From Desulfobacterales bacterium (GTDB taxonomy: Bacteria; Desulfobacterota; Desulfobacteria; Desulfobacterales; JAFDDL01), in assembly GCA_963675725.2 (NCBI GenBank), contig CAXXXZ010000002.1, forward strand, positions 1,839,459 through 1,871,458: a DNA stretch of 32,000 nucleotides. The letters run 5' to 3'. Position 1 is the stretch's first letter; every line of letters starts with the position of its first letter. The translations under genes and the position numbers were made by a program. The notes beneath the pieces were generated by a model. The model was not told the DNA's origin. It did no database searches and worked only from the letters and a program-made list of their open reading frames with translations. Below are positions 1 to 30,041 of the stretch, one piece after another.

Positions 1-202
1 GATCGGTGAACAGTGAGAAGATAAGGATAAAAGAAGTGATCAGTTATAAGTGATGGGTGATGGATAATGGGTAATGAGTTATGAGAGCGGGTGTAGCGTT
101 TATTTTTTTAATACTCTTAATCAAACCCAATCCGGCTGGGCCGGAAGTCGTGAGTCTACAGTCGAGAGTCAACAGGCACAACCATCCATAAAGATGAACG
201 CT

Positions 203-313
203 TGGGAAGGCTCTATCACGATGAAGTATCGCTTTACCTTTCATTTCGAAGAGGACATAGTCATTTTCAGAGCCATTGGAACGTATGATATCCTTTTACG
301 CGATGCTTCGTGA
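203..313 (+). pseudogene. RelE/ParE-family toxin, 3' remnant (last ~36 codons)
   Basis: 111 nt are near-identical to the 3' end of the intact gene at 23334-23444 (WEGSITMKYRFTFHFEE..ILLRDAS*). The 5' part is replaced by unrelated sequence. Confidence 0.8.
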
Positions 314-430
314 TTCACACTTCGTATTTCTCTGCTTTGGTTACATACCTATCCCCTACCGCTGGTCTCTGACTTCCGATATCTGATCTCTGCCCCCTGT
401 CTTTTCAGTTCACCGGTCACCGATCACTAA

Positions 431-452
431 TTTCTGTCAAGATTCAAGACCC
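431..452 (+). repeat. 20-bp terminal box of mosaic block (copy 1 of 10)
   Basis: Sequence tttctgtcaagattcaagaccc, preceded by cagttcaccggtcaccgatcac. Consensus TTCTGTCAAGAWTSAAGACC. Confidence 0.8.
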
Positions 453-468
453 GTTGCAGTTCAATGAA

Positions 469-576
469 TATAATTTTGAATGCTGAATGTTGAATTAATG
501 TGGGTTGCCTATTCTAATAACAACGAAATTCTTCATTTAATTTTATTCGAAATTCAAAACTCATAATTCAAAATTG
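469..576 (+). repeat. AT-rich hairpin element X (diverged copy)
   Basis: GAATGTTGAATT-type left arm and AATTCAAAAYTC-type right arm around a ~50-nt loop. Same architecture as 9831-9945, 21127-21235 and 21822-21920. Confidence 0.5.
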
Positions 577-688
577 ACCATTGCCGTCCTTAACGTCTTG
601 GCGTCTTCGGGTGACATTTGTTTTTTTCTGTTCTCACGCCCACGCGAAGTCTATCAAACTCGCTTATCTCGTTCAAGCTGCAGCGTCG
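577..688 (+). repeat. Element A (long variant), imperfect palindrome
   Basis: cttggcgtcttcgggtgacatttg...ttctcacgccc...aactcgcttatctcgttcaagctgcagcgtcgc. Related to 9508-9568, 21236-21287, 21920-22005 and 22416-22497. Confidence 0.65.
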
Positions 689-1849
689 CTAAGATTTTAT
701 CTTCCCCGCAAGAATCCGATAGGGCCTTAAAAAATGATAAAGAAACAAAAATCGATCCGGCAGCGGATACTGATCCCATTCCCGAACGGTTGGTTGAAAA
801 AAGAGACGAAAAAAATATCTGATACCATCTATCACGCTATCCCGGACAAAGAAGTGGCCCGCAGAAAATCGCCAATGAACGTTTTTAGAAAATTCGGTCT
901 GGTTATTTTCAATTCTTCGAATAAAATGTTTAGAAAGTCTTTTAAGGACAACCTCTGCGGATATTTTTGGGTGAATCAAAACTGGCAACTTCGCATCAAA
1001 GAAGTATTCCGCGAGCATCATCCCCAGCATCACCATCCGTTTACACTTAAATTTTCTGGCCCGTTCAAAAAGAGCTTCCCAATCGTCAATGTTGCCAGCG
1101 TTGATTATCTCCGCGATGGAAATGATCGGCTCCAGCTTGTCCCAGCAGTGACTGGTGGAATGGATGCAAAGGTAAATCAACAAATCTTCATAAGAGAGTG
1201 TTTGAATAGTCCGATCCAGGAAATCGATTTTAATGGTACGTGAAACCAGGTTTTCAACCGCAACTGGCTTGGTTGCATACCTGCCGGTCAACTCCCAGTG
1301 CAAATCAATATGGACACTGCCGGTTTCATTACTGAGTTCAAAAAAATTTTCTTTATTGAGGAAGGAAGATAATTGGCCATTTGGGATATCCACATTTGTT
1401 CTATAGCCATGATTTTTTAGAAGGCTCATCGCCTTTGCCACATCTTTTTTCCGAATGAGAATATCAAGATCTGCAAAGGCCCTTGCGCCAATGTCTTTAT
1501 AAATCAACTCAGATTGGAGCGGCCCCTTTATGGGGATTGCAGCAATATTGTTTTGGGTAAAAAGGTCGTATATCCCGATGAGGGTTGCGCTTAGCGATAA
1601 GTTTCTATAGCTGTTTTTAAAAAAACTGTTTTTAAATTCACTAAAAACGGATTCTGGGATGTCGGCTTTATCAGCTTTGTTTAAAGTCTTATAGAGGATA
1701 CAGAACAATCCATGGGTTTTGGCCAAAGAAACGACCTGTTCCCAATCGATATCACGAAGGGAACGGTTATCTTTAGAGAGTAAGTCATCCCCACCCTTTG
1801 CCAATGAAAGAACAACCTTCAACGGATCATTTAGCAAGCGCTTGCTCAT
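689..1849 (-). CDS. Uncharacterised nucleotidyltransferase-family protein (NTP_transf_5-like)
   Basis: 386-aa ORF of ~380 aa with a DLDILI motif, as in the uncharacterised nucleotidyltransferase family found in polysaccharide loci. Assigned from memory of the family. Confidence 0.5.
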   Translation of the reverse strand: MSKRLLNDPLKVVLSLAKGGDDLLSKDNRSLRDIDWEQVVSLAKTHGLFCILYKTLNKADKADIPESVFSEFKNSFFKNSYRNLSLSATLIGIYDLFTQNNIAAIPIKGPLQSELIYKDIGARAFADLDILIRKKDVAKAMSLLKNHGYRTNVDIPNGQLSSFLNKENFFELSNETGSVHIDLHWELTGRYATKPVAVENLVSRTIKIDFLDRTIQTLSYEDLLIYLCIHSTSHCWDKLEPIISIAEIINAGNIDDWEALFERARKFKCKRMVMLGMMLAEYFFDAKLPVLIHPKISAEVVLKRLSKHFIRRIENNQTEFSKNVHWRFSAGHFFVRDSVIDGIRYFFRLFFQPTVREWDQYPLPDRFLFLYHFLRPYRILAGKIKS

Positions 1850-1892
1850 AAACCTTTATGGTCTGTTCCATTTTTTGATCAATTACATCCAC
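1846..1892 (-). pseudogene. Glycosyltransferase C-terminal remnant
   Basis: The minus strand reads ..DQKMEQTIKVYEQA and overlaps the ATG at 1849. About 45 nt align with the 3' ends of the glycosyltransferase genes at 7007 and 19122 (..QTIKVYEQALKKR*). Confidence 0.45.
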
Positions 1893-2014
1893 CACGAAGT
1901 TAATGAAGAGCTTGAAGAAACAACGATTCATAATTCAAAACTCAAAATTGTCGCTTACCGCTCTCTGACTTCCGACCTCTTGCCCTTCGCAGTTCACACA
2001 GATCACTGATCACT
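1886..2014 (+). repeat. 129-bp mosaic segment, near-identical copy of 18917-19045
   Basis: ccaccacgaagttaatgaagagcttgaagaaacaacgattcataattcaaaactcaaaattgtcgcttaccgctctctgacttccgacctcttgcccttcgcagttcacacagatcactgatcact occurs in both places. Confidence 0.85.
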
Positions 2015-2156
2015 GTTCACGGTATGACACTAATGTGGTTCTCTGGGTGAAGAGTGATGAGTGATGCGTAATGAGTGAAGTGTTAATGGCTGATTTTGTT
2101 TTTTAGACTTCGAATTAGGCCTAAAAGCATTTTTCTTATTGGCGCCACGGAATTTT

Positions 2157-2326: not shown

Positions 2327-2346
2327 TTCTGTCAAGATTCAAGACC
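2327..2346 (+). repeat. 20-bp terminal box (copy 2)
   Basis: Sequence ttctgtcaagattcaagacc, preceded by cacggcagttat. A unit-specific promoter follows. Confidence 0.8.
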
Positions 2347-2436: not shown

Positions 2437-2685
2437 ATGAACACAGAAAATATTCGCCTTAATATTACATTGCCGAAAGATCTGGTCCACATTATAGATC
2501 AGATAACCGGCCCCCGGAAACGCAGCTTGTTTATCGCCGAAGCCATTCAGCTCAAATTGAATCAAGCCCGAAAAGAAGCTCTTGAAAAACAACTGGCCGA
2601 AGGCTATCGCGCTGGTTACCAGGAAAGCCTCGATATCGCGTCTGAATATGAAACCGCCGACCTGGAGGGCTGGGATGACTATTGA
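2437..2685 (+). CDS. Ribbon-helix-helix antitoxin (CopG/MazE-like)
   Basis: 82 aa with an N-terminal RHH pattern (IRLNITLPKDLVHIID) and RBS aaaggagg. Its stop overlaps the downstream MazF-like gene. Confidence 0.75.
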   Translation: MNTENIRLNITLPKDLVHIIDQITGPRKRSLFIAEAIQLKLNQARKEALEKQLAEGYRAGYQESLDIASEYETADLEGWDDY

Positions 2686-3034
2686 AAGAGGGGAAATTCA
2701 TCTGGCAGCACTGGATCCCACCGTGGGCCGGGAAATTGCCAAAACTAGGCCTGTCGTTATCATATCAAACAATGTCAACAACCGATTTGCAGGTACCGTT
2801 TCTGTCTTACCAATCACTTCAAAAAATGTGCAGAAAATTTATCCATTTGAGGTAAAACTGCCCGAAGGCTCGGGCAATCTTCCGAAACATTCAAAGGTTA
2901 AAGCAGACCAAATACGAACCCTCGATAAATGTCGGATCGTCAAGCGCATTGGCGTGTTAAACGCTGAAAATATGGCAAACATAGAAACTGCCCTTAAAAT
3001 ACATCTTGGACTGGAATTTGAGTTAGATTCCTAA
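2675..3034 (+). CDS. MazF/PemK-family endoribonuclease toxin
   Basis: MTIERGEIHLAALDPTVGREIAKTRPVVIISN.. is a typical PemK/MazF N-terminus. The ATG at 2675 overlaps the antitoxin by 11 nt. Confidence 0.85.
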   Translation: MTIERGEIHLAALDPTVGREIAKTRPVVIISNNVNNRFAGTVSVLPITSKNVQKIYPFEVKLPEGSGNLPKHSKVKADQIRTLDKCRIVKRIGVLNAENMANIETALKIHLGLEFELDS

Positions 3035-3049
3035 CGGCCTGCATAATAC

Positions 3050-3136
3050 AGAAGATATCGAAGGATTGGTTAAAAGGCATGTTGATATCGTTAGGGTTCG
3101 TGAAAAAAAGAATCCTCTCCTCCGCGAGCGGATTGA
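3050..3136 (+). pseudogene. MNT-type nucleotidyltransferase, 3' remnant
   Basis: EDIEGLVKRHVDIVRVREKKNPLLRERIE aligns with the C-terminus of the MNT at 17847-18137 (EDIEVLVQRHVDIIRVREQMNPFLRERIE). No upstream part is present. Confidence 0.7.
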
Positions 3137-3244
3137 ACCATCGTCTTTTTGTGTATGTCCGTTGTTCATTCAAACTCCATAACTCATAATTCAAAATTGC
3201 CCCACCATCGGTTTTTGTTGCGTGATGAGTGATGCGTAATGAGT

Positions 3245-5489
3245 AATGGGTTCCGGGTAAAGGCACCGGTTACCCGGCGCCCTCCCCACAGACCCGGACG
3301 TGCAGTTTTCCCGCATCCGGTTCCTCGATTCAGGCCCTTTTTACCGAGCCGTCAACCAATCAGGCGACACCCCGATTGGCGCATAACTTTGCTGCCCTGC
3401 AAGTGTTCAGATATTATGAACTATCCGGGGGAGCGGCAGGGGAAAGGTCTTGAGAATGCGATTGAACTTCTCGCAACTTATATACCCATCCCTATGGCGC
3501 CGTCCGAGCCAGCGTCTCCATGCTTTTCCTGCGAACTCGTACACCACCTCCAGCACCTTATAGTTTCCCCGCACCCCAAAGTATTGGTAATACCCCCGAA
3601 GTTTGCTGCATAGCATTTCATGCTGCTCTTTCAGGGGGTCATGCCGATTTTCTTTGCACCAATTCCACAACATCCGCATAAAGCGGTTTCGCCGTTTCCG
3701 GGCGGTTTGCTTCTTTATCACCCAGTTGCCCTTAAGGCTTTTACCCCAGTAAAAGGTAAACCCGAGAAAATCAAAGGTTCCTTTCGGCTTCCCGCTCCGT
3801 GGTGGCTTTCCGAATGGAATCAACCGGGTCTTTTCCGGATGAAGGTCTAATTTGAAACGGTTGAATCGTTTCGGTAATGCTTCCATTAATCTCTTAGCGT
3901 CCGACTCCAGTTGAAACCCCATAATGAAATCATCTGCAAATCGAATTAGGAAACACTTGCCCTTCAAACGTGGTCCGACCTCCTTGACGTACCAGTCGTC
4001 CAACACGTAGTGCAGAAAAACGTTACTGAGCGTCGGCGAAATAACCCCACCTTGGGGAGTACCCTTCTCAGGATAGATGACCTCACCGCCTTCAGCTACA
4101 CCGGCGTTCAACCACTTGCCGATAAGCCGAATAATGCCGCCGTCATTCACCCTGATTCGGATTATATCCCGCAGCAGGTTACGATCAATATTGTCAAATA
4201 ATCCTGTAATATCAGCGCTCAAGATCCAGTTGATGTTCAGATTTCGGCATTTCTCACGAAGTTCGTGGATTGCCATATGCTGGCTGTGGCCGGGACGAAA
4301 CCCATGCGAAAAATCATGGAATATCGGTTCATAGACCACACCCAATAGGATCGCCACCGCCTTTTGAACTATCTTGTCTTCCAGGGCAGTAATCCCTATG
4401 GGGCGCTTTTTACCGTCTTCCTTATCCAGCCAAATGCGCTTCACCGGGGAAGCAACGTACTGACCTCTGCACAGCCGTTGATATAGATTATAGAGGTTTT
4501 CGTCAAGATCCACGGCGTACTGCTTTGCCGTCACCTTGTCTACACCGGTGGACTCATTCTTGTGCAGTTTGCGGAATGACTTTCTCAACAGGGATAAATC
4601 GATCCTGTGCGCCAGAGACGTAAACACCAAACGCGGGTCCGCCTCTGCCAGCATCTTGACCCGGACGAGCGAAGACTCACCTACCAATAGCGGTGGATTG
4701 TCCTTTACGTCACGGTTTGAACAACTCCTGGAATCGCACGCATCCTGCGACGCAATTCCCTGGTTTTTCGTTGATATGGTTTGTGATTTCTGTGTATCTC
4801 CCATAGTTCCTTCCAGAGAAACGTTATACCCTGCTTCACCTTCCCTACAGTGGGTCGCTTGGGCGAAACTTCCCCACCTTCCCGTCCCGGTTTCCCCGAA
4901 CATCGGTACTATGATCCACTAAGACTTCCGAATGCCTATCTTGGGGTTGTTCGTTTGTCACTCCGCCCCCAATACCTTGTATCACCTCTCTGCGTTCGTC
5001 AATTCTCTCGAACTCTCTGCACAGCGGAGGTTGTCTGTTGCAGAGCCGGGAGTTTTACTCTTTGGACGGTTTCTCCCAACCGTGTCGTACAAGGAAGCAT
5101 TCGGATCTCCCCAGTTCCCGAGTTACCCCCTTGAGCACATGCCCTGGTCTCAGACCCCGGTGGTGTCCTATTCGCTCGCCATAACGCTCACAGGACTTCT
5201 GCCTTCCACTCACTTCACAGTGTCGGCTTTCTCTTCCTTAGTATCAGGACGATTATCCTATCGGTCCACAACTATACATATTTCGGGGCTCAATGCAGGG
5301 CCTACGCCCTTGCTCCGTCCGGCTCCAGACGCCCGTTACCGGGTTTGCCTGCGGACCTCGCTACTGAGCTGGTGGCTAACCTTTGCTCAGATGGGACTTT
5401 CTCATTTTGAGATCACCCATTGGGTAACAATATCGTATTTCTTCTACCTTTCGGTAAAATCCCAACGACTCGGGCTTCGCTGGGCGCGA
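3245..5489 (-). mobile_element. Group II intron 1 (ORF-containing, atypical hallmarks)
   Basis: RT/maturase ORF in domain IV. Domain V-like hairpin at 3291-3323 (gaaccggaugcgggaaaacugcacguccggguc). Borders (+/-1-2 nt) come from comparison with an unoccupied paralogous site at 2054-2084 (junction 2076|2077). The 5' end aligns with the GUGCGCCCAG type but reads UCGCGCCCAG. Confidence 0.75.
3407..4903 (-). CDS. Group II intron reverse transcriptase/maturase (no En domain seen)
   Basis: RT blocks (RPIGITALEDKIVQ, TPQGGVISPTLSN, IRFADDF) and a maturase X tail (LRGYYQYFGV). The true start may be an internal Met (~4804). Confidence 0.9.
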   Translation of the reverse strand: MFGETGTGRWGSFAQATHCREGEAGYNVSLEGTMGDTQKSQTISTKNQGIASQDACDSRSCSNRDVKDNPPLLVGESSLVRVKMLAEADPRLVFTSLAHRIDLSLLRKSFRKLHKNESTGVDKVTAKQYAVDLDENLYNLYQRLCRGQYVASPVKRIWLDKEDGKKRPIGITALEDKIVQKAVAILLGVVYEPIFHDFSHGFRPGHSQHMAIHELREKCRNLNINWILSADITGLFDNIDRNLLRDIIRIRVNDGGIIRLIGKWLNAGVAEGGEVIYPEKGTPQGGVISPTLSNVFLHYVLDDWYVKEVGPRLKGKCFLIRFADDFIMGFQLESDAKRLMEALPKRFNRFKLDLHPEKTRLIPFGKPPRSGKPKGTFDFLGFTFYWGKSLKGNWVIKKQTARKRRNRFMRMLWNWCKENRHDPLKEQHEMLCSKLRGYYQYFGVRGNYKVLEVVYEFAGKAWRRWLGRRHRDGYISCEKFNRILKTFPLPLPRIVHNI

Positions 5490-5590
5490 GAAGTGTTTTT
5501 GTTCTGACCTCTGCTCTCCGACCTCTTGCCCTTCCCAGTTCACACCGATCACTGATCACTATTCACGGCAGTTATTCACAGTTCACTGGT

Positions 5591-5610
5591 TCCTTTCAAG
5601 AATGAAGACC
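5591..5610 (+). repeat. 20-bp terminal box (copy 3, diverged)
   Basis: Sequence tcctttcaagaatgaagacc, preceded by cacggcagttattcacagttcactgg. Confidence 0.65.
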
Positions 5611-5690: not shown

Positions 5691-6041
5691 TCAGGCAGAT
5701 TCTATGAGGCTTTCGTAAGGGATACCCAACCCTTTGTGTAGTTTCTTGATTTGCGGCAGCGACAGGGGACGTTTTCGGTTCAGGACATCGCTGACCCTGC
5801 TTTTAGGACCGAGGTATTGCTCAAGAGCCTTACGGTCTATATTCATCTGTTCCATTCGAAACAAGATGGCATTCACCGGGTCAGAAGGAGGGATGGGGTA
5901 ATGTTTCTCCTCATAGGCATCAACCAGAACCAGCAAGATATCAAGCTCATCTCCTCTCGGGGTATCGGGCTCAGCCCCCCAAAGTGCTTCAATCCGTTTA
6001 AGACTCTTTTGGTATGTTTTTTCATCCTTAATAGGCTTCAT
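5691..6041 (-). CDS. higA: HigA-type HTH antitoxin
   Basis: 116 aa with a C-terminal XRE-type HTH (SRVSDVLNRKRPLSLPQIKKL). Overlaps the upstream HigB-like gene by 4 nt. Confidence 0.75.
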   Translation of the reverse strand: MKPIKDEKTYQKSLKRIEALWGAEPDTPRGDELDILLVLVDAYEEKHYPIPPSDPVNAILFRMEQMNIDRKALEQYLGPKSRVSDVLNRKRPLSLPQIKKLHKGLGIPYESLIESA

Positions 6042-6340
6042 TCGACAACCTCAACGTCTATGGCGTCGTATTCAGCATGCGTACCAACGAACTTGATGAA
6101 CATCGCCTGCCTCTTATAATCCATTGCGCACACAATACGATAATCATTTCCCTTGATATTGAAAACAATCCTGTTGTTGCCCACAATCGAAGCATGCCCG
6201 AATGTACTTTTAACCTCCTGGGGTGTCGTCCAAGACTGTTTGGAACAGAAATGATACCACTCAGTTAAATATGACTGGGCCTTCTCATTGCCGGACCGCT
6301 CCCAGTATTTTCGTAGCCGACTTTTTGCAATTATTCTCAT
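6038..6340 (-). CDS. higB: HigB-family mRNA interferase toxin
   Basis: MRIIAKSRLRKYWE..NRIVFNIKGNDYRIVCAMDYKRQAMFIKFVGTHAEYD shows the typical HigB_toxin pattern, with the toxin upstream of the antitoxin. Confidence 0.8.
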   Translation of the reverse strand: MRIIAKSRLRKYWERSGNEKAQSYLTEWYHFCSKQSWTTPQEVKSTFGHASIVGNNRIVFNIKGNDYRIVCAMDYKRQAMFIKFVGTHAEYDAIDVEVVE

Positions 6341-6559: not shown

Positions 6560-6813
6560 CGAATGGATTCATTGGGTTGATGAGTTACAAAAAGAATCGG
6601 CTCTCCTTTCCATCGAGTTTAGCATGGCAAAAATGTTTTCGTAGGTATCATCCAATATCGCGAACTTCTCCTAATTTGATCAATCAATGAATATGTTTCA
6701 TTTTTTGGGAATTTTTTCGTATGTTCATATATTTCCATCGCAGCGTCGAAAGCTTTTCTGTAGACTTTCAGATCTCTCACTGACCGGACCCTATTCGAAT
6801 GTTTTTCAACCAT
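6560..6813 (-). pseudogene. Four-helix-bundle (23S rRNA IVS-type/Avd-like) protein, internally deleted
   Basis: The N-terminal 53 aa (DLKVYRKAFDAAMEIYEHTKKFPKNETYSLIDQIRRSS) are joined out of frame to a C-terminal piece (..DDTYENIFAMLNSMERRADSF). Confidence 0.6.
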
Positions 6814-7006
6814 CGTCTATCATCCTAGCAAAGCGGTCGTCCCACGTCCATCGGTCTTTACTGTTCACCGATCACTGATCACTCATTACTCATCACTTTT
6901 TCCCTGATCCCTTGCCCTTTTCAGTTCACTGCTCACTGTTCACTGCAGTTATTCACAGTTCACTGATCACAGATCACAGTTCACAGTTCACGGTAGTTAT
7001 TCACAG

Positions 7007-8116
7007 TCACCGTTTTTTAAGCGCCTGCTCATAAACCTTTATGGTCTGCGCTGCAATTTTTTCCCAATTGTATTTTTCTTTTATCCGGCTGATAAAATCG
7101 TTTTTCTCCCCATCTGAAATCCCAACCTCAAGAAGCCGCTCCATTTTCTCTTTCAAATCTTCGACATCCCCGCATGTAAAATACCGATCTTTCCTGAGCC
7201 CCACCTCAAGGTTTGCGGGAATATCAGAAACGAGCACCGAGCGCCCGTAGCCCATGGCCTCAAGCAAAGCGATCGGGAGCCCTTCATGAAACGACGGCAT
7301 GACAAACAGCCTGGCATGGGAAAAAAGCTGATGTAAAGGTTCGCCGGTAATATACCCCGTCCGGATGATATTATCATCGGAATCAATCATCGCCTTTAGC
7401 TGTTTGCTGTAGGTTGTTTCATACTCAGAGTCACCCACAACGACTAATTTAAATTTTGTATTGCATTGCTGAAAAGCGCGAACGAGAAGCTCAAGACCTT
7501 TTTCTGGGACAAATCGCGCAACCGTTAGTACATATGAATCGGGTTCGAGATCAACTGAGTCTAAAAATGACCGCCCCTTATGCTTATTGGGAATGGCAGC
7601 CCCATTATAAATTACCGTTGCAGGTTTTTTATACTTTGTAAGGACAAGGTTCTCGATTGTTTTTGAGATTACAATCATTTCATTTGCAAAGAGACAACCC
7701 AGGTATTCGCCGATTTGGAGAAATAATTTTGAAAGCTTTCCCCACTTCTTTTTTTCATAATCCGGGCCATGGTGGGTGAAGATGACCGTTAAGCCCATTA
7801 TCCTTGCTACGGGAACTAATAAGGCAGGCCCAACCGCATGGATGTGAACCATATCCGCTTTTAACAGCTTCGCTTTTATGATGGATAGGAAGGTATGAAA
7901 TATTGTCTCAAGGTGTAAACTCGAAGGGGCAAAGGTGTTAATGATATTAACCCCCTTCCAGTTGCTTTGCTTCACCTTACAATATTTATTTCGAACTGAA
8001 ATAACGATTTCAAAATCTGAATTTTTCGATAGGTTTGCGTAAAGGTGTTGGCAGTGTGTCTCAATACCACCAGGAACATACGGAATCCCTCTCGTTCCGG
8101 TAACGAAAATTTTCAT
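7007..8116 (-). CDS. Glycosyltransferase (GT4-type with DUF1972-like N-terminus), copy 1
   Basis: 369 aa. MKIFVTGTRGIPYVPGGIETH at the N-terminus and an EGLPIALLEAM (E-x7-E region) in the C-terminal domain. About nine-tenths identical by eye to 19122-20231. Confidence 0.85.
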   Translation of the reverse strand: MKIFVTGTRGIPYVPGGIETHCQHLYANLSKNSDFEIVISVRNKYCKVKQSNWKGVNIINTFAPSSLHLETIFHTFLSIIKAKLLKADMVHIHAVGPALLVPVARIMGLTVIFTHHGPDYEKKKWGKLSKLFLQIGEYLGCLFANEMIVISKTIENLVLTKYKKPATVIYNGAAIPNKHKGRSFLDSVDLEPDSYVLTVARFVPEKGLELLVRAFQQCNTKFKLVVVGDSEYETTYSKQLKAMIDSDDNIIRTGYITGEPLHQLFSHARLFVMPSFHEGLPIALLEAMGYGRSVLVSDIPANLEVGLRKDRYFTCGDVEDLKEKMERLLEVGISDGEKNDFISRIKEKYNWEKIAAQTIKVYEQALKKR

Positions 8117-8174
8117 TCAAACTTTCTAATCTGCGCCGTACCCAGTGAAATCTTATTTTCACATTTCACCAAGG

Positions 8175-22415: not shown

Positions 22416-22497
22416 GTTCTTCGCGCCTTGGCGTCTTTGCGTGACATTTGGGTTTTATGCCTCACGCCCGCTCCGCTCAAGACGCAAAGCCGCAAAG
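22416..22497 (+). repeat. Element A (short variant), upstream of GxxExxY gene
   Basis: gttcttcgcgccttggcgtctttgcgtgacatttgggttttatgcctcacgcccgctccgctcaagacgcaaagccgcaaag. A direct repeat of 21920-22005. Confidence 0.75.
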
Positions 22498-22727
22498 TTG
22501 TTGAATTTATCTGCGCCAGCTGACCTCTGACCTCCAAACTCTGATCGCAGCCACTTCGTCAATTCAAAATTCACAATTCAAAACTCAAAATTGTCGTTTC
22601 CCGCTCTCACGCCTTACGGTCGTTAGCTCTCCTCATTGATTCCAGATCTCAGTTCATCGTCCATCGTCCGAGCAAAGCGTTCGTCCATCGTCCCTCGGTC
22701 TTTACCGTCACTGATCACTGTTCACTA

Positions 22728-22791
22728 CATTTTAAATTCTGCGTCAATCGGCGCACTCCTCAAGGGGGTATTAAACTGAAAAATCTGTGGA
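22728..22791 (+). repeat. Element Y, 5' part
   Basis: cattttaaattctgcgtcaatcggcgcactcctcaagggggtattaaactgaaaaatctgtgga. Confidence 0.75.
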
Positions 22792-22839
22792 CTGGAAATA
22801 TAAATCAGCAGACCAGGAGAAAGTCCCCCAAAGCTACCC

Positions 22840-22902: not shown

Positions 22903-23181
22903 ATGTCAACAGTTATGAAAATTAGCCCCCAGGGGCAGATTCGAATTCCCAAGAACATCATGAACATTCTCAAAATAATGCCTGGCGATTATGTTGAGGT
23001 GGATGTTGAAAACGGTCAAGCGGTGTTGAAGCCACGAAAACTCATCGATCCCACTCAAGGATGGTATTGGACCAAAGAATGGCAAAAAAACGAGACCGAG
23101 GTTGATAAGGAACTTGAAAACGAGCAGTGTTCAACGGTATTTCAGACAGCGGAAGAAGGGTTGGAATGGTTGAACGAATAA
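22903..23181 (+). CDS. AbrB/MazE/SpoVT-family antitoxin
   Basis: ISPQGQIRIPKNIMNILKIMPGDYVEVDVENGQAVLKP looks like a swapped-hairpin barrel. Overlaps the downstream toxin gene. Confidence 0.75.
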   Translation: MSTVMKISPQGQIRIPKNIMNILKIMPGDYVEVDVENGQAVLKPRKLIDPTQGWYWTKEWQKNETEVDKELENEQCSTVFQTAEEGLEWLNE

Positions 23182-23444
23182 AGGGATACCGTTTCAGCAA
23201 CCGCTTTAAAAAACAGTATAAAGCGTTGCCCGCTGAGATTCGGCAGGCATTCAACGAAAAGCTTGAAATGTTTCTTCTAAATCCGTCTCATCCATCATTA
23301 AGGGTTAAAAAGATACAGGGTGTTCAAAATCGATGGGAAGGCTCTATCACGATGAAGTATCGCTTTACCTTTCATTTCGAAGAGGGCATTGTCATTTTCA
23401 GAGTCATTGGGACGCATGATATCCTTTTACGCGATGCTTCTTGA
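23166..23444 (+). CDS. RelE/ParE-family toxin
   Basis: FKKQYKALPAEIRQAFNEKLEMFLLNPSHPSLRVKKIQG..WEGSITMKYRFTFHFEE..IGTHDIL. ATG at 23166 lies within the antitoxin 3' end. Confidence 0.8.
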   Translation: MVERIKGYRFSNRFKKQYKALPAEIRQAFNEKLEMFLLNPSHPSLRVKKIQGVQNRWEGSITMKYRFTFHFEEGIVIFRVIGTHDILLRDAS

Positions 23445-23560
23445 TGCTTATTTCGCTTTTCTGCTGTAGTTAAACTCCGACCTCTGGTCTCCGATCTCTG
23501 TCGTCTGTTCTCTGATTTCTTGTTTTTTACTGTTCACCCATCACTGATCACTGTTCACTG

Positions 23561-23671
23561 CATTTTACATTCTGCGTTAATCGGCGCACCCCTCAAGGGG
23601 GTATTAAACTGAAAAATCTGTGGATAGAAACTTATAAATTTATGTACGTCCCAGAATTCCCTGAATTCCAC
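23561..23671 (+). repeat. Element Y (full length)
   Basis: cattttacattctgcgttaatcggcgcacccctcaagggggtattaaactgaaaaatctgtggatagaaacttataaatttatgtacgtcccagaattccctgaattccac. Confidence 0.8.
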
Positions 23672-23728
23672 CCCTCATCATTTTTCCCCCGGCCTCAGGC
23701 CGCCGACCTCCGCCCCCTGAGCTTCCAC

Positions 23729-23757
23729 CTATCATTGCTTGACAATATACTGATATT
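23729..23757 (+). promoter_or_regulatory. Sigma70-like promoter of DUF4258 unit
   Basis: cattgcTTGACAatatactgatattgtaATATAT. Shares the module with 13391-13425. Confidence 0.55.
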
Positions 23758-23825
23758 GTAATATATTATTAGGATAATGAGCGTTTAAAGAACATAATTT
23801 TTGATACATAATAATTCAGAATTTA

Positions 23826-24148
23826 ATGTATAGCCAAATATCAGAATATCTAAGATCAACACTCGATGAATGGGCTATCGAATATCGCGTTCATGCCACT
23901 AAACGAATGTTTAGCCGTTCAATTGAAGAAAAAGATGTGCGACATTTGCTGGCAAATGGTTCAATTATCGAGGAATATCAAGACGATTTTCCTTTTCCGA
24001 GTCTTTTGATCAAAGGTTTCTCATGCAACAACAGGCCATTACATGCTGTTGTTGGAATTGATGCTTACACCGGCTTTACTTGATTACCATCTATGAACCC
24101 GATCCTAAAGAATGGACGGAAAATTATACCAAGAGGTTAACGCCATGA
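23826..24148 (+). pseudogene. DUF4258-family toxin-like gene with -1 frameshift
   Basis: ..RPLHAVVGIDAYTG then a stop at 24081. The next frame continues LYLITIYEPDPKEWTENYTKRLTP* and ends in an ATGA overlap with the zinc-ribbon gene, exactly as in the intact paralogue 20650-20967. One nt is missing at ~24073. Confidence 0.7.
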
Positions 24149-24369
24149 AGTGTGCAATCTGTCGAAACGGACAAACAATTGACGGCCATATTACAGTTGT
24201 TCTTGAAAGAGAACAATCAACGCTCGTGTTTAAAAAGGTTCCTGCAAAAATTTGTGAGAACTGTGGTGAAGAATATTTGTCCGAAGAAACGAATAAATTA
24301 CTTTTACAAAAAGCCAAAGAGGCCGTTGACAGGGGAGTTGATCTGGAGCTGTTAAGATTTGCAGCATGA
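24145..24369 (+). CDS. YgiT/MqsA-type zinc-ribbon antitoxin-like protein
   Basis: MKCAICRNG..ICENCGEEYL. Paralogue of 20417-20653. Confidence 0.7.
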   Translation: MKCAICRNGQTIDGHITVVLEREQSTLVFKKVPAKICENCGEEYLSEETNKLLLQKAKEAVDRGVDLELLRFAA

Positions 24370-24538
24370 ACAGGGCTCAGTTAACAAATGTCTTTTTCAG
24401 TTCACGGATCACTGATCACTGCTAACTGTTCACTGCCCAATCATTACTCATCACTCATCATTTTTCCCCCGACCTCAGGCCGCCGACCTCTGACTTCAGT
24501 TCTCTGATCTCTGTTACAATCCGTTCACTGATCACCTA

Positions 24539-24558
24539 TTCTGTTAAGATTCAAGAGC
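24539..24558 (+). repeat. 20-bp terminal box (copy 9, diverged)
   Basis: Sequence ttctgttaagattcaagagc. Confidence 0.65.
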
Positions 24559-24563: not shown

Positions 24564-24986
24564 CTACGTAGTCTTTCGGAGCTCATCAAGCAATTCGGGA
24601 TGCCTGCCAAGCAGACGAAATAGATTGACCACTGCCGGAAGGGGTTTGGATTCTCCGCGCTCATACCGGGAAAAGGCATTATGCCCACCCCCTGTTAATA
24701 AAGCCGCCTGTTTCTGGGTTAGCTTCAACTTTTTACGGATTCGATTCAACTCCTCGGCCTGCGATTGGTCCACCCGCTTCATGAATTCAACCAGCAGTCC
24801 TTCAGTCGCTGCCATATCCTCACCGGACAGGACCGCTTCCCCGCACACGGAACACCAATCTCCTGGTTGGTCGTATGTCAATTTCTCCCCCCGGTAGTCG
24901 AACCGGCTCTTCCGGATTTCCCGACTTAAAGAGCCCCTCGAGCAAACGGGGCATGTTTTGCGTGAATTATGTCTTGTCGCGTTCAT
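24564..24986 (-). CDS. mqsA: MqsA antitoxin (zinc ribbon + XRE HTH)
   Basis: CPVCSRG..CSVCGEAV zinc ribbon plus LKLTQKQAALLTGGGHNAFSRYERGESKP HTH. Confidence 0.85.
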   Translation of the reverse strand: MNATRHNSRKTCPVCSRGSLSREIRKSRFDYRGEKLTYDQPGDWCSVCGEAVLSGEDMAATEGLLVEFMKRVDQSQAEELNRIRKKLKLTQKQAALLTGGGHNAFSRYERGESKPLPAVVNLFRLLGRHPELLDELRKTT

Positions 24987-24989
24987 TAC

Positions 24990-25292
24990 TTACAGTTCCT
25001 TGAACGAGATTGTAAAGTAGCCTGATTCATCTTTTTGAAATTTGATATACAGGCTTTTACGACGCCATTTGGCATGGTAAACATCCTGCCATATCTTCGA
25101 ATCATGATACGTCGTCATGGATTTATAGAAAGAATCATGACCCAACGATTGAATGACCCGTATCGCAACCTCCATGGTGACTCCTGCCCGCAATGCATCG
25201 TTTCTGGCTGAAAGCGTCATTCGGAGACCGTTTATGGATACCATTTGCGCCTGAATATCCTTGAGAACATAATGCGGCCGTTTCTTTTCCAT
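24990..25292 (-). CDS. mqsR: MqsR toxin
   Basis: MEKKRPHYVLKDIQ...KSMTTYHDSKIWQDVYH...LYIKFQKDESGYFTISFKEL shows the typical MqsR pattern, upstream of mqsA. Confidence 0.85.
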   Translation of the reverse strand: MEKKRPHYVLKDIQAQMVSINGLRMTLSARNDALRAGVTMEVAIRVIQSLGHDSFYKSMTTYHDSKIWQDVYHAKWRRKSLYIKFQKDESGYFTISFKEL

Positions 25293-25725
25293 ACCAATAT
25301 AACCCTTAAAGGGTAATTAATCAAGTTTCATATGTACACCATTTTCGTCCATCATTCGAGCGGCTTGTCAGGCTGAAGCTTGAAAAGCTGAGCCTGTCCT
25401 GCCGGGCGTAGCTTAATGCGAAACCTGAAGCGGTCATCCTACGTCCTTTGAGTCTTTAATCGCTCTAACGACCTCACGCGCTCCTGCCTTACGGTCGTTA
25501 GCTTTCCTTACTGATTCCTGATCTCAGTTCATCGTCCATCGTCCATCGGTCTTTACCGTCATACTGTGACCAGCGTTTTAATTCCCGTCCAATTCCAGCG
25601 TTTTAATTCCCATCCGATTTCATCGTTTTGATTCCAGCCATCTAATTCATTTCCGTTTGATTCTGAAAAAAAGAATAAAAATCCATATAGTTGCTCTTAT
25701 TCATCCTGTTGAAGGGAGCCGGCAT

Positions 25726-26231: not shown

Positions 26232-26612
26232 ATGATCAAGAAAAAAATCCTTGACCCACAGCGCATCCGTCGCATCAGCGGCGGCTTCAGCTTCATCCCG
26301 CATCGATTCCTTACTGGCGGATTTGTATCGTCCTTGGCGCCTGAAGAGCTACTTCTGTATTTTTTTCTGGTGATGGCGGGAGATAAAAACGGGCTTTCCT
26401 ACTACAGCTACGACACGATCTGCAGCCTTCTTAAGATGCCTCTGGAGACGTATCTTCAGGCCCGGAATGCGTTAATCAAATACGACCTTCTCGCCTTTGA
26501 CGGCACGATCTTTCAGGTGCTTGATCTTCCCGATACGGCCCCTGCAACAAAGCCTTGCAGCTCAAACATTAATGGGCTGATCGGCAGCATGCTGAAGGGG
26601 GCGTCGGTATGA
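26232..26612 (+). CDS. Hypothetical protein (possible winged-helix DNA-binding) inside IS21-family element
   Basis: 126 aa with RBS aaaggggg. Its stop overlaps the istA ATG (ATGA), suggesting translational coupling. The winged-helix guess rests on pattern only. Confidence 0.5.
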   Translation: MIKKKILDPQRIRRISGGFSFIPHRFLTGGFVSSLAPEELLLYFFLVMAGDKNGLSYYSYDTICSLLKMPLETYLQARNALIKYDLLAFDGTIFQVLDLPDTAPATKPCSSNINGLIGSMLKGASV

Positions 26613-28093
26613 TAGGCAGCGAACTTCTTTTTGAAATCACCCGCCTGAAGAGCGCGGGGTGGTCCGATCGCAAGATTGCACGTCACCTCGGATGTGATCG
26701 GGCCACCGTCAAAAAATATGTGGAAAACCCATACCAAGAATTTAAAAAGCCGCCGCCCAGGCAGTCAAAACTTTCTGCCTATCGCCACCTGATCCACCAG
26801 TGGTTCAAAGAGGACCCGGAGGTTAAGGCTACTGTGGTGCTGCAACGGCTTTCTGAAAAAGGGTTTACCGGCAAGATCACCATTGTGCGGGATTTGCTTA
26901 GGGAGCTTCGGGGCCGACGGAAATATCGTCAAGCGTATATCCGCTTCGAGTCTGGACCCGGCAAGCAGATGCAGATCGACTGGGGGCATTTTGGCTCGCT
27001 GGCATACGGCGGGACAACCAGAAAGCTCTATGCCCTGGCGGTATTGGAAGCCCACAGCCGCATGCTGTATGTAGAATTCACCCACAGTCAGAAACAGCAG
27101 ACGCTGCACCGATGTCTTCTGAATGCCTTTTTGTTCTTTGGCGGCACTCCTCGTGAGATAGTGGTGGACAACATGCTCACGGCCGTCACCGAGCGCCAAG
27201 GGTCGGTGATTCGATTTAATGATGCGTTTCTGGATTTTTTGCGTATCTTCGCCATCCGACCAATTGCCTGCAATCCCGGCGCGCCCCATGAAAAGGGAAA
27301 GGTGGAGGCGGCTATCAAATATATACGTCGGAACTTCTGGCCCCTGAGATCTTTCGCTGATCTCGCCGATGTAAACCATCAGGTCCGCCAGTGGCTTGAT
27401 GCGGTTGCCAATGTGCGGCTTCACCAGAGCACCGGAAAACCGCCGCTGGAGCGTTTTGAAAAAGATAGCCTTCAGCGGCTTCCGGAACTTTTGCCGGACT
27501 GCCGGGAAGTATATCAGCTCAAGGTGCACAAGGATTTTGCGGTTCGCTTCGACGGCAATAGCTACAGCGTTCCGCCCTGGAGTATTGGCAAAAAGCTTAC
27601 CTTGAAAGCCGATGCCTGCAGCGTAACGCTGTATCACCGGGAGAAGAAAATCGCCGTTCACACCCGGTGTTGGCAGCGCTACCAACGAATTGAGACAGAA
27701 GCCCACGGACAGCAGGTAAAAAGACTCCAAAGAAGGCTGTGGCATGACCGCGAGGTCGCAGCCTTTGCTTCATTGGGGGAAGATGCCCGGCGCTATCTGG
27801 AGGGCATGATCGCTGCGGGCGTTGGTGTCAAAAAAAACGTCGCCAAAATACTTGAACTGAAAAATGAATACGGGGCCGGGGCGATTGTCGCAGCCGTCCA
27901 GAAGGCGCTTTCGTTCAGCGCCTACGGGGCGGATTACATCGAAAATATCCTCTATCAGGAAATAACGCCGTGCAGTCATCATCCGCCGGTTAAGCTGAAA
28001 AATGATGCGCTGAATCGTATCGTGCTCACGCAACCATCACTGTCCGATTATGATGCTCACGTGCTCAAAAAAAAGGGGAAAACCGATGAATGA
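26609..28093 (+). CDS. istA: IS21-family transposase IstA
   Basis: 494 aa. N-terminal HTH (WSDRKIARHLGCDRATVKKY) and a DDE core (QIDWGHF..VVDN..PGAPHEKGKVE). Confidence 0.9.
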   Translation: MIGSELLFEITRLKSAGWSDRKIARHLGCDRATVKKYVENPYQEFKKPPPRQSKLSAYRHLIHQWFKEDPEVKATVVLQRLSEKGFTGKITIVRDLLRELRGRRKYRQAYIRFESGPGKQMQIDWGHFGSLAYGGTTRKLYALAVLEAHSRMLYVEFTHSQKQQTLHRCLLNAFLFFGGTPREIVVDNMLTAVTERQGSVIRFNDAFLDFLRIFAIRPIACNPGAPHEKGKVEAAIKYIRRNFWPLRSFADLADVNHQVRQWLDAVANVRLHQSTGKPPLERFEKDSLQRLPELLPDCREVYQLKVHKDFAVRFDGNSYSVPPWSIGKKLTLKADACSVTLYHREKKIAVHTRCWQRYQRIETEAHGQQVKRLQRRLWHDREVAAFASLGEDARRYLEGMIAAGVGVKKNVAKILELKNEYGAGAIVAAVQKALSFSAYGADYIENILYQEITPCSHHPPVKLKNDALNRIVLTQPSLSDYDAHVLKKKGKTDE

Positions 28094-28823
28094 GCTTATC
28101 GATAAATGCAAAGAGCTCAGGCTCAAAGCCAGTGGGCAGAATATCGTCCAGGTTATTGAGGCGGCCTCGCAAAAAAACTGGACCATCCAGAAAACCATCG
28201 CCCATCTTTTTGACCTGGAATTGGAATACCGACGACTGAATCGCATCGCCTTATACTTTAAAAGATCCAAGCTTACGGAAAAGCTCACCATCGACCAGTT
28301 TGATTTTGGCCACCACCGTTCCCGAAAGGATCAGAAATCGAAAATACTGGACCTGACCTCCCTTACGTTTATGCAACAGAAAAAGGATATCATCTTCATC
28401 GGCAATCCGGGTACCGGCAAATCTTTTTTGGCCAAGTGTATCGCCTATGCGGCGACCCAGGCCGGAAAAAAGGTAATGTTTACCACCGCTATGGACATGA
28501 TTAACCACCTCATCGCGGCTGAAGCGGACCATTCCTTGCTCAAAAAGCTTCAGTTTTATCAATCCCAGGACCTGCTTGTAATCGACGAAATCGGTTATCT
28601 TCCGCTGGGCCGGCAGGGGTCAAACTTGTTCTTCCAGGTCATCAGCCAAAGGCATGATCAACGATCCACGGTGATCACAACCAATCTGCCTTTTGGGCAA
28701 TGGGGGAACATCTTTGACGGCACCACTGTGGCCACCGCGATCGCCGACCGCCTCGTCTATAACTCCCAGGTTCTTATCTTGGAGGGTAAAAGCTATCGAA
28801 AGAGGGAAATCCAGGCTGAATGA
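28086..28823 (+). CDS. istB: IS21-family helper ATPase IstB
   Basis: Walker A GNPGTGKSFLA and Walker B LLVIDEIGY. The ATG at 28086 overlaps the istA stop. Confidence 0.9.
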   Translation: MNELIDKCKELRLKASGQNIVQVIEAASQKNWTIQKTIAHLFDLELEYRRLNRIALYFKRSKLTEKLTIDQFDFGHHRSRKDQKSKILDLTSLTFMQQKKDIIFIGNPGTGKSFLAKCIAYAATQAGKKVMFTTAMDMINHLIAAEADHSLLKKLQFYQSQDLLVIDEIGYLPLGRQGSNLFFQVISQRHDQRSTVITTNLPFGQWGNIFDGTTVATAIADRLVYNSQVLILEGKSYRKREIQAE

Positions 28824-28991
28824 CTAAAAATAAGGGCACCACCGACAGCCCCCTTCAACACACCACACTCACGGCTTGTTCATTGCGCCATTAGGATCGA
28901 CTGCGCGCCTACTGTTGATTGGCTGATATTAAAACGTTGGTTTTGGCTGGAATCTCAAACGTTGGTCACAGTCATACATCACTGTTCACTG

Positions 28992-29093
28992 CATTTTACA
29001 TTCTGCGTTAATCGGCGCACCCCTCAAGGGGGTATTAAACTGAAAAATCTGTGGATAGAAACTTATAAACTTATGTACGTCCCTGAATTCCAC
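28992..29093 (+). repeat. Element Y (full length)
   Basis: Near-identical to 23561-23671. Its right end ...ctgaattccac joins directly to a truncated PIN gene. Confidence 0.8.
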
Positions 29094-29405
29094 CCGGGTA
29101 GTCTATTCACAACCGAAGCTGTTCTCACGGAAGTTCTTTATCTTCTGAATTTTTCGGTCAAGGCTCAGGAAGCGGCCATCAATTTTATTCTTAATTTGGT
29201 GGTTGAATTGATTCCTTCAAGTGCTGACAGTTTAAAAAAAGCAATAACACTTATGAAAAAATATTCTGATCTGCCGATGGATTACGCAGATGCGACGATT
29301 GTTTGTCTTGCAATGGAAACAGGCATACATAATATCATCACTCTCGATAAAAAGGATTTCGGTATATACAGGCTCAAGCGCAAACCCTTTTGTGTTTTTC
29401 CATAA
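29094..29405 (+). pseudogene. PIN-domain toxin lacking its N-terminus
   Basis: ..TEAVLTEVLYLL...MDYADATIVCLAMETGIHNIITLDKKDF.. covers the central and C-terminal PIN motifs. The first acidic motif and the true start are replaced by element Y. Confidence 0.6.
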
Positions 29406-29465
29406 CCCATTGCCCTACGGGCAGATTAATTTTATTTGCGTTTTTGTCTGTGTGGGTCCGTGGCC

Positions 29466-29850
29466 AATTGATAAGTGATCAGTTATGAGTTATGTGCGAT
29501 GAGTGATGAATTCCGTTTGCTAAGTGCTGAGTAAAAAACCGTTAGATCGGAAGTCGTTAGTCGTAAGGAATTAATCTTGAAGGTTGAGAACGTCCCCACG
29601 ATCGTTAAAATACGTGAGGGCGTAAGTCGTCAGGGGTGGTCGTTGCTGTTTCGCTCTAACGCCCTCCCGCCTGACGCTCTCCCGGCAGTTAAGCCCTCAC
29701 GCCTCACGGTCGTTTTGTCTTCCCTCGTCCTTCGATCTTTCTTCGTCTATCGTCCCAGCGAAGCACACGTCCAACGTCCCTCGGTCTTTACTGTTCACCG
29801 ATCACCATTCACAGATCACTGAGGTTATTCTGTCAAGAATGAAGACCCGG
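29466..29850. repeat. Palindromic mosaic block P2
   Basis: The left arm has inverted classes (gtgatcag, gatgagtgatga, gatcggaagtcgttagtcgtaagg, cgtgagggcgtaagtcgt). The right arm has forward classes (ctaacgccctcccgcc, ctcacgcctcacggtcgt, cgtccttcgatc, ctgttcaccgatcac), ending in box 10. Confidence 0.6.
29828..29847 (+). repeat. 20-bp terminal box (copy 10)
   Basis: Sequence ttctgtcaagaatgaagacc, preceded by cactgaggttat. Confidence 0.8.
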
Positions 29851-29860
29851 GCAATTCTCC

Positions 29861-29928
29861 TGAAAATATGGCAAACATAGAAACTGCATTTAAAATACAT
29901 CTTGGACTGGAATTTGAGTTAGATTAGT
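29861..29928 (+). pseudogene. MazF-family toxin, 3' remnant
   Basis: ctgaaaatatggcaaacatagaaactgcatttaaaatacatcttggactggaatttgagttagat matches 2965-3029 (..ENMANIETALKIHLGLEFELD). Downstream flank homology continues to ~29948. Confidence 0.75.
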
Positions 29929-29958
29929 CACGACCTACATAATACAGCCGCGAATCAG

Positions 29959-30000
29959 CGGATAGAAACTTATAAACTTATGTACGTCCCTGAATTCCAC
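29959..30000 (+). repeat. Element Y, 3' part
   Basis: cggatagaaacttataaacttatgtacgtccctgaattccac. Confidence 0.8.
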
Positions 30001-30041
30001 CTCTCACAATTGTCTTTTGGCCGTTCACTGATCAAGGCCAT

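Follow-up and report, generated by a model that had tools for sequence, protein, structure and literature searches.

In this work we analysed a stretch of 32,000 nucleotides from a Desulfobacterales bacterium (assembly GCA_963675725.2, contig CAXXXZ010000002.1, positions 1,839,459 to 1,871,458 of the forward strand), referred to as the window, in which ten copies of a 20-bp sequence, TTCTGTCAAGAWTSAAGACC, lie on one strand between small gene modules. This sequence, named the box hereafter, forms the conserved inner portion of a TIRYT terminal repeat, a TIRYT being a Y1 HUH transposase resembling the REP-associated tyrosine transposases (RAYTs; REP, repetitive extragenic palindrome) and equipped with a helix-turn-helix (HTH) domain of the DnaA_C type. 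The kind of repeat is known; the family, found in Desulfobacterales-type genomes, is new. As to the array itself, we consider it probable that it consists of polar mosaic repeats, akin to the bacterial interspersed mosaic elements (BIMEs) and the neisserial intergenic mosaic elements (NIMEs), which act as insertion targets and recombination substrates in a polysaccharide locus invaded by toxin-antitoxin (TA) modules. The original prediction had taken the ten boxes for the boundaries of a divergent integron cassette array or of a different, undescribed cassette system.

The box corresponds to bases 8-27 of a 27-bp terminal inverted repeat (TIR), GGGGTCAGGTCTTCATTCTTGACAGAA. Six complete transposase genes, located in unrelated flanks and encoding proteins 62-70% identical to that of locus L013 (loci of other genomes bear L numbers), are each bracketed by this repeat, with GGGGTCAGGTCTTCATTCTTGACAGAA upstream and its inverse at the 3' end. 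The arms are about 1 kb apart around an open reading frame (ORF) of 312-322 aa (~317 aa), the whole element measuring ~1.05 kb; upstream, 45-70 nt separate the arm from the start codon, and at the other end arm and stop codon overlap. The transposase contains the Pfam domains Y1_Tnp and Bac_DnaA_C and scores above the cutoff of the NCBIfam model NF047646, REP-associated tyrosine transposase (90.4 bits, cutoff 80). The TIR begins with the motif GGGGWSAS, here GGGGTCAG. Long terminal inverted repeats sharing GGGGWSAS around RAYT-like genes characterize the TIRtron/TIRYT class, whose repeats also occur single, as dimers or grouped (Di Nocera, De Gregorio & Rocco 2013, PMC3733652), and the DnaA_C-bearing proteins constitute subclass 2.1.2 (Quentin et al. 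2018, PMC6006769). The box family resembles the TIRtrons in its RAYT-like Y1 HUH transposase with a C-terminal DnaA_C-type HTH, in its long TIRs with GGGGWSAS, in the downstream repeat covering the 3' end of the gene and in the presence of gene-free repeats as singles, dimers and groups. The window, in contrast, contains only the inner 20-bp core, on one strand and fused to blocks of 7-bp repeats, ten times in 30 kb of a TA-invaded polysaccharide locus, and polar arrays of this sort are absent from the only two papers of the literature library searched in which the terms TIRtron and TIRYT appear.

The transposase family comprises at least 7997 members, mostly on contigs of 1-3 kb, and a homologue or a fragment adjoins the box in about 35 of 186 loci. 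The window encodes no transposase of this family, and its source contig (4.6 Mb) is absent from the best 120 of the at least 7997 members. In four long contigs TIRtrons stand alone among ordinary genes, with their own two repeats and a few extra copies in mixed orientation, and the idea of the transposase as the 'integrase' of an array end was rejected on this ground. One family member, P0097, is a 425-aa fusion of a Y1 transposase and a nucleotidyltransferase domain (MNT-type, PF18765/PF01909).

A scan for exact matches to the box in one genome per species yielded 66 stretches, nearly all from metagenome-assembled genomes (MAGs) of Desulfobacterales, Desulfobacteraceae, Desulfosarcina or Syntrophales; four were chance matches inside genes. 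The box was usually found once per stretch, often at contig ends, with at most three exact copies in any of the species representatives scanned. At least 120 further stretches with the box came from a metagenome scan, and viral contigs contained neither the box nor the left-arm motif. The comparison set consisted of about 190 other Desulfobacterales-type contigs with 192 exact boxes, of which 63 belong to hairpin doublets, 17 flank the transposase gene and 78 stand alone, their upstream sequences being unrelated. The doublets are imperfect palindromes with the arms GGGGTCAGGTCTTCATTCTTCAC and TTCTGTCAAGAATGAAGACCTGACCCC, one of which includes the box, separated by a loop of mostly 4 or 15 nt, and they fold strongly as single-stranded DNA (z -6.2 and -9.7). 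Conservation ends abruptly at both edges of the 20-bp core. A generic REP/BIME-like repeat, spread through ordinary intergenic regions, had been named as the finding that would speak against a cassette array; this description fits in part, as the box is found in numerous ordinary intergenic settings throughout a bacterial order.

Two other features accompany the box in these genomes. Directly 5' of 25 of the 192 boxes (L012, L018, L035, L040, L044, L050, L055, L058, L062 and others) lies a partner element of ~75 nt, ...gaaaatCACAGGCGCCagcagTTTGGCGTCCTGTGcattttatGGTTCGGCAAAGCCGtt.tttccaa, abutting TTCTGTCAAG. Its hairpin shows compensatory changes in L044 and L058 (CGCC/GGCG to CACC/GGTG) and is followed by a T-run, so that it resembles a terminator. 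An Rfam search of 18 related loci detected a single additional group II intron, and neither the box nor the partner element had a match. In L007, L030, L038, L045, L048, L049, L054, L057, L066, L080, L101 and L167, a segment just 3' of the box is duplicated in tandem two or three times, in nested fashion; it comprises the outer ~16 nt of the repeat, TGACCCCNTTGTTTTT, and in some cases a portion of the box as well. In L045 both arms show such duplications. These duplications could have arisen by slippage or by repeated cutting and rejoining at GACC^TGACC.

In the window, a pattern scan allowing up to three mismatches gave exactly ten matches, all on the + strand (0.01 expected from shuffled sequences), as originally described, except that the first begins at 432 and not at 431. 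Such a one-strand bias has a probability of p = 0.002 under random orientation. The window copies are cores only, and the outer GGGG/CCCC end is mostly absent: TGACCC, with one mismatch allowed, directly follows 2 of the 10 boxes, versus 115 of the 192 exact copies from other genomes. Recognisable remnants of the outer repeat are nevertheless present 3' of boxes 6, 7, 8 and 9. The sequence after the box had been regarded as unit-specific in most copies, which is in part incorrect, because in other genomes the repeat extends over ~16 nt more (TGACCCCNTTGTYTT), the part left as remnants after boxes 6-9; the palindromic element X does directly follow boxes 1 and 8, as had been noted. The partner arm is decayed to GGTCTTTACTGTTCAC, present in five copies with at most one mismatch, and slipped GTTCAC/GATCAC runs separate this remnant from the box. 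Upon single-strand folding, the 85-nt regions ending at the box had z values between -0.5 and +1.5 for nine of the ten boxes, with no hairpin (box 1, z +1.5, was unfolded), and the value of -2.7 at box 5 was owed to small unrelated stems; none of the ten boxes was paired into a hairpin doublet. A stem between the upstream GGTCTT and the AAGACC of the box is too weak to fold. Terminator-like sites are not in excess and none is found at a box, which argues against a terminator or promoter function; a promoter is located at 2375-2404, downstream of box 2. The Rfam search of the window detected group II introns only.

The sequences 5' of the boxes are made up of tandem 7-bp repeats (GATCACT, TCATCAC, AATTCAA, CTGACCT, CATCGTC and others), almost only on the + strand, and the blocks that they form are C-rich on that strand (C/G of 1.66 versus 1.10 in the rest of the window). 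The box had been described as always the last element of such a block. This holds for nine of the ten copies, box 8 following unique sequence. The GTTCAC/GATCAC tract said usually to precede it is found at seven of the ten. Of CGGYAGTTAT, box 2 has an exact copy, box 3 a copy shifted upstream by 19 nt, and boxes 4 and 10 have near-matches. We counted at least 16 co-oriented mosaic blocks, at least six of which end without a box. Only about one spacer in two is therefore marked by a box, each inter-box interval holds one to four gene modules, and the proposed partition of the window into box-delimited units is incomplete. The blocks are mosaic copies of one another with up to 96-98% identity, which indicates that distant blocks were recently copied or converted, while the genes between them are unrelated. 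Both in the window and in the L195/L196 pair presented below, the intergenic blocks are thus assembled from a few short motifs, variably combined and common to unrelated loci, a trait of BIMEs and NIMEs. Block 29560-29870 forms an imperfect hairpin of ~115 nt (z -2.3), and block 16260-16480 is unfolded (z -0.7). A cyanobacterial origin of the heptamers, which are reminiscent of the short tandemly repeated repetitive (STRR) sequences, was rejected, as nearly all boxes of the genome scan were from Desulfobacterales and Syntrophales MAGs.

The same design was found in another Desulfobacterales MAG. Locus L053, extended to 21.6 kb as L195, carries eight boxes, all co-oriented (8/8), whose neighbours are TA modules, PDDEXK_3, a 23S_rRNA_IVP protein and two DUF4143 ATPases. 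This array also lies inside a polysaccharide locus (Bac_transf, Hexapep, DegT, Polysacc_synt_2, NTP_transf_5), with the boxes opposite to the backbone genes, and no transposase of the box-associated family was called in its 21.6 kb. In L161, three co-oriented boxes surround a MazEF homologue. Among the loci examined, such box arrays are limited to the window, L053/L195 and L161.

A close relative of L195, L196, is 97-99.8% identical to it over about 7 kb and differs at three places. At the first, an unrelated block of 118 nt stands in place of a 273-nt heptamer block, and the swap stops exactly at the 5' edge of a box. At the second, 11 nt correspond to 303 nt, starting just past box+TGACCC, and the box variant is changed too; the additional segment has a counterpart, 96.8% identical, in a unit of L195 about 7 kb away. 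At the third, synteny is lost at the 3' end of a heptamer block without a box, and different sugar genes lie beyond. These differences identify the repeat edges as breakpoints between close relatives. The comparison of related genomes for breakpoints at the box, which had been suggested with the cassette hypothesis, thus gave differences that start exactly at box edges. The arrays of the window and L195 have NTP_transf_5, a DUF4143 ATPase, PDDEXK_3, DUF4258/MqsA-like pairs and MNT/HepT or 23S_rRNA_IVP in common, which suggests that a recurrent set of small genes colonises such polysaccharide loci. Beside boxes of other arrays, 9-bp tandem repeats (AATCTGCGT, AGATTCGTG) take the place of the heptamers (L195 12055-13076 and 9817; L161 1380-1530), as they do at 18796-18814 of the window; inverted copies (ccgcagattacgcagatt ... 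aatctgcgtaatctgcgg) form long-range palindromes.

The box repeat is a precise target of an IS110-family insertion sequence (IS). At box 5 of the window this element splits the inner from the outer repeat, the displaced outer part, TGACACCCTTGTTTT, being located at 16204-16218, 1919 nt downstream. Its left end, TGATATTCATATAAAGG, forms an identical junction with the box in the window, L005 and L076, and its right end, ...CCTTTAATGGG, is followed by the outer repeat part in the window and in L080 (TGACCCC). The other (left) arm of the repeat is split in L001 by a group II intron that shares the Rfam type of the window introns, and six more loci have related introns close to boxes. The presence of IS110 and group II introns in the window, first interpreted as an integron-associated sign, is thus accounted for by the fact that both element families target the box repeat and not attC. 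The idea that every unit is an insertion between inner and outer repeat is true only for the IS110 element: among boxes without outer part, a downstream orphan copy of it is not more frequent (4/76 versus 18/116).

The orientation of the boxes follows a rule that extends to the whole family. In 45 of 57 loci of at least 3 kb (p = 1e-5), the single copy occupies the strand whose GC skew is negative; doublets show no significant bias. For the box strand, GC skew amounts to -0.078 (window) and -0.115 (L195). Such a rule is as expected from single-strand, replication-coupled HUH chemistry, for which the precedent of IS200/IS605 has been discussed (PMC6006769), and it could make all the copies of one 30-kb stretch co-oriented.

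The features of the window are listed in Table 1. About a dozen type II TA modules are present, on both strands, and domain scans of the ORFs confirmed these modules, the two group II introns on the - strand, the IS110 and the IS21 element. Box orientation is unrelated to that of the adjoining TA genes and opposite to that of the polysaccharide backbone genes. Self-comparison of the window also confirmed the truncated gene fragments: a ParE 3' end (203-343), an MNT fragment (3051-3136) and an 88-bp MazF 3' end (29860-29947), located 12 nt past box 10 and similar to 2964-3051.

Table 1. Boxes, repeats, genes and mobile elements of the 32,000-nt window (positions within the window; mismatches relative to the box sequence)
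Feature	Position	Strand	Remarks
Box 1	432-451	+	0 mismatches; solo TIR core, ATTC variant
Box 2	2327-2346	+	0 mismatches; left-arm-like GGTCTTTACTGTTCAC (2281-2296) and GATCAC run upstream
Box 3	5591-5610	+	2 mismatches; AATG variant
Box 4	10074-10093	+	0 mismatches; AATG variant
Box 5	14265-14284	+	1 mismatch; IS110-family element directly after last base (GACC^TGA)
Box 6	17749-17768	+	2 mismatches
Box 7	18759-18778	+	1 mismatch; degenerate outer TIR part TGACACTCTTGCCTT retained at 18779-18793
Box 8	21104-21123	+	3 mismatches, weakest copy; TAATCTGCG upstream as in L195 array, not heptamers
Box 9	24539-24558	+	2 mismatches
Box 10	29828-29847	+	0 mismatches; last copy
Box-ended blocks	344-431, 1880-2326 (box 2), 5451-5590, 9830-10073, 14062-14264, 17258-17748, 18501-18758, 24370-24538, 29406-29827	+	self-comparison, motif map
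Box-less block	6728-7006	+	96% identical to 2156-2309
Other box-less blocks	12949-13390, 16267-16500, 18911-19121, 22417-22830, 23445-23720, 25346-25656	+	self-comparison, motif map
Y-tail GATAGAAACTTATAAACTTATGTACGTCCC, 30 nt	8184-8213, 23623-23652, 29054-29083, 29961-29990	+	alternative block ending; TAATCTGYGG upstream
Element X	9840-9941	+	inverted arms AATTTTGAATGTTGAATT / AATTCAAAATTCA, loop ~50 nt
Element X, further copies	472-575, 17484-17596, 21153-21234, ~21823-21916		
IS110-family element	14285-16203	+	transposase gene 14638-15657; NF033542, 179.6 bits
Group II intron 1	3150-5450	-	ends approximate; reverse transcriptase gene 3407-4903; inside block upstream of box 3
Group II intron 2	10144-12129	-	reverse transcriptase gene 10317-11708
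IS21-family genes	26232-28823	+	HTH ORF, IstA, IstB
NTP_transf_5	689-1849	-	
TA module HicB-like/MazF	2437-3034	+	
TA module HigB/HTH	5691-6340	-	
Two GT4 glycosyltransferases	7007-8116, 19122-20231	-	90% identical
AAA_14/DUF4143 ATPase	8332-9495	+	
TA module PIN/Phd	12130-12839	-	
TA module MNT/HepT	13452-14061	+	
TA module ?/PIN	16585-17153	+	
TA module MNT/HepT	17715-18500	+	
TA module MqsA-like/DUF4258	20417-21009	-	
MNT	21481-21801	+	
PDDEXK_3	22006-22383	-	
TA module MazE/ParE	22903-23444	+	
TA module DUF4258/MqsA-like	23826-24369	+	
TA module MqsA/MqsR	24564-25292	-	
PIN	about 29095-29405	+	
UDP-GlcNAc 2-epimerase and WecG	30042-31876	-	polysaccharide backbone genes

Several further observations concern these features. 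The Y-tail may be the end of another repeat family; it stands where the box follows TAATCTGCGG in L195/L196 and at box 8 of the window. Element X is a separate palindromic repeat, the arms of which are themselves heptamer arrays. Within the GGYAGTTATTCACAGTTCAC of the GTTCAC runs, TTATTCACA is a perfect DnaA-box consensus (TTATNCACA), with five copies on the + strand (5572, 6949, 6997, 13256 and 19111), and the box-associated transposase family possesses a DnaA_C-like domain. A role of these sites as DnaA boxes was not retained, enrichment with a relaxed pattern being modest (9 found versus 3.7 expected). The 5' end of intron 2 (GTGCG) lies at 12129/12130, directly after the TGA stop codon of the PIN toxin and in the orientation of the PIN operon. 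The GT4 gene is duplicated together with its flanks (6970-8186 and 19084-20301, 90% identical); the duplication starts in a heptamer run (6863/19023) and ends in TAATCTGYGG, followed by the Y-tail in one copy and by a degenerate box-like sequence in the other. Two unrelated TA modules (MNT/HepT and DUF4258/MqsA-like) have nearly the same promoter region, cattgcTTGACAat.tactga.attgTAATA, located at 13397-13425 and 23739-23767.

Small, self-promoted TA and defence modules have invaded a polysaccharide gene cluster, and the spacers between them are filled with polar, C-rich heptamer blocks, many of which carry solo cores at their 3' ends. To account for these results we propose that the repeats would be hot spots for insertion, as illustrated by the IS110-family element and, in another genome, by the group II intron. 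Being co-oriented direct repeats with up to 98% identity, they would also serve as substrates for recombination, which would swap, delete or duplicate the modules between them. Their uniform orientation would result from the strand rule of the repeat family and not from serial site-specific insertion; the location of single copies on the C-rich strand, opposite to the backbone operon, would fit replication-coupled single-strand DNA chemistry.

Known repeat systems provide parallels. Like the box, the REP/REPIN-RAYT repeats and the BIMEs of Escherichia coli are short repeats tied to a domesticated IS200-like transposase, combined with other motifs in intergenic mosaics. REPIN doublets are the presumed mobile form and singlets the decayed form, and the box repeat exists in the same two forms. 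REPs are also sites of IS110/IS1111-family insertion, as for ISPpu9 (PMC8450116). However, REPs carry a GTAG tag and are small palindromes, whereas the box repeat has no such tag and is not a palindrome, and REPs usually alternate in orientation within BIMEs, whereas the window copies are all co-oriented. The NIMEs with their dRS3 repeats, like the 'minimal mobile elements', are arrays of intergenic mosaic units, with short repeats targeted by IS110-like recombinases, and have been proposed to drive recombinational exchange of the genes between repeats. The dRS3 sequence is a short inverted repeat on both sides of each NIME unit, and host and sequences are unrelated to those of the window. With IS200/IS605 and the palindrome-associated transposable elements (PATEs) the box family shares single-strand Y1 HUH chemistry, an orientation tied to strand or replication direction and ends usable in trans. 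The two ends of IS200/IS605 elements, though, bear dissimilar subterminal hairpins, and their target is a tetranucleotide, in contrast to the true inverted repeats of the box family and to arrays that contain no left-end counterpart.

Some observations weigh against our proposal. The local density of ten boxes in 30 kb contrasts with the three or fewer exact copies per species-representative genome, and a process specific to the array may be at work. The sharp edges of the core, together with the L195/L196 breaks at these edges, fit site-specific cutting better than plain homologous exchange. TA or defence genes lie in three of five intervals between co-oriented box pairs of other contigs. The constant survival of the same arm is not explained, and the link with GC skew could reflect gene orientation instead of replication.

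That the array is passive debris, in which decaying doublet remnants and slipped microsatellites have piled up in a tolerant, TA-rich, non-essential locus without any role in gene flux, seems to us unlikely. The degeneracy of the window copies (zero to three mismatches, outer end gone, partner arm decayed) and their lack of structure or terminator signal are consistent with it, and the strand bias of single copies throughout the family could by itself produce co-orientation. However, mere decay accords poorly with the recent copying or conversion of distant blocks, with block swaps and indels at box edges between nearly identical genomes, with the precise IS110 targeting in several genomes and with the recurrence of the design in a second genome.

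We consider it unlikely that the array is a non-integron cassette platform, built one unit at a time by excision of box-ended units and their insertion beside another box, through a Y1 HUH enzyme (a TIRYT acting in trans) or another site-specific activity. The strict polarity (10/10 in the window, 8/8 in L195), independent of gene orientation, speaks for it, as do the abrupt end of conservation at both core edges, the L195/L196 differences starting from box edges, with the same box-led segment at different array positions in both, and the TA and defence cargo between co-oriented box pairs elsewhere; blocks up to 98% identical beside unrelated cargo also recall the attC sites of sedentary integrons. 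Against it, the window contains no transposase of the family and none was called in L195, the enzyme being encoded elsewhere by elements that stand alone among housekeeping genes. The window boxes have neither the outer GGGGWSAS end nor a pairing partner and therefore do not form the stem of complete elements. Many blocks end without a box, the truncated gene fragments abutting boxes indicate imprecise events, and orphan outer parts are not enriched downstream. The more specific proposal that the TIRYT-repeat core would be the cut and re-insertion junction of TA, defence and sugar-modification modules, giving rise to polar arrays in Desulfobacterales polysaccharide loci, appears to us a little less likely still. 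The different cassette system of the original prediction keeps some ground, through the polar array of the second genome and the breaks at box edges, as a minority reading only.

A very divergent sedentary integron or cluster of attC sites lacking an integrase (CALIN), with the mosaic blocks as attC sites and the box as one core, is highly improbable: the small TA cargo, the co-oriented repeats, the IS110 and intron insertions and the one block with a ~115-nt imperfect hairpin give a superficial likeness, but complementary RYYYAAC...GTTRRRY pairs with L boxes, 50-200 nt apart, number 0 on both window strands (0.07 in shuffles; the pattern scan is cruder than an attC covariance model), no tyrosine recombinase or Phage_integrase match was found among the window ORFs scanned, including all those of at least 150 aa, the box regions and block 16260-16480 are unfolded, the cargo genes lie on both strands, and the box is shown to be a Y1 transposon end. 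The original prediction had itself seen neither attC cores at consistent positions nor an integrase in the window. Integron arrays and CALINs do share with the window co-oriented repeats, highly similar within an array, between small, often TA-type, self-promoted modules, and hairpin-seeking introns and IS110-family elements inserted in these repeats; the window differs from them by the absence of R''/R' cores, of a folded bottom strand and of IntI, by repeats that are microsatellite mosaics of 100-450 bp and by cargo on both strands. A literature search found no work linking attC, REP or TA arrays with Desulfobacterales.

Our analysis removes a false integron lead, in that an integron-like array without attC or IntI can arise without the integron machinery. 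It also provides an anatomy, consisting of a 27-bp terminal repeat, hairpin doublets and singles, for a large and almost unstudied transposase family with at least 7997 relatives. The repeat is a precise target of an RNA-guided IS110-family element and is split by a group II intron in one other genome. TA-invaded polysaccharide loci with polar microsatellite mosaics between the modules emerge as a recurrent design, and, if the repeat edges are enzymatic cut sites, these loci would represent a second, independent bacterial route to gene-cassette arrays.

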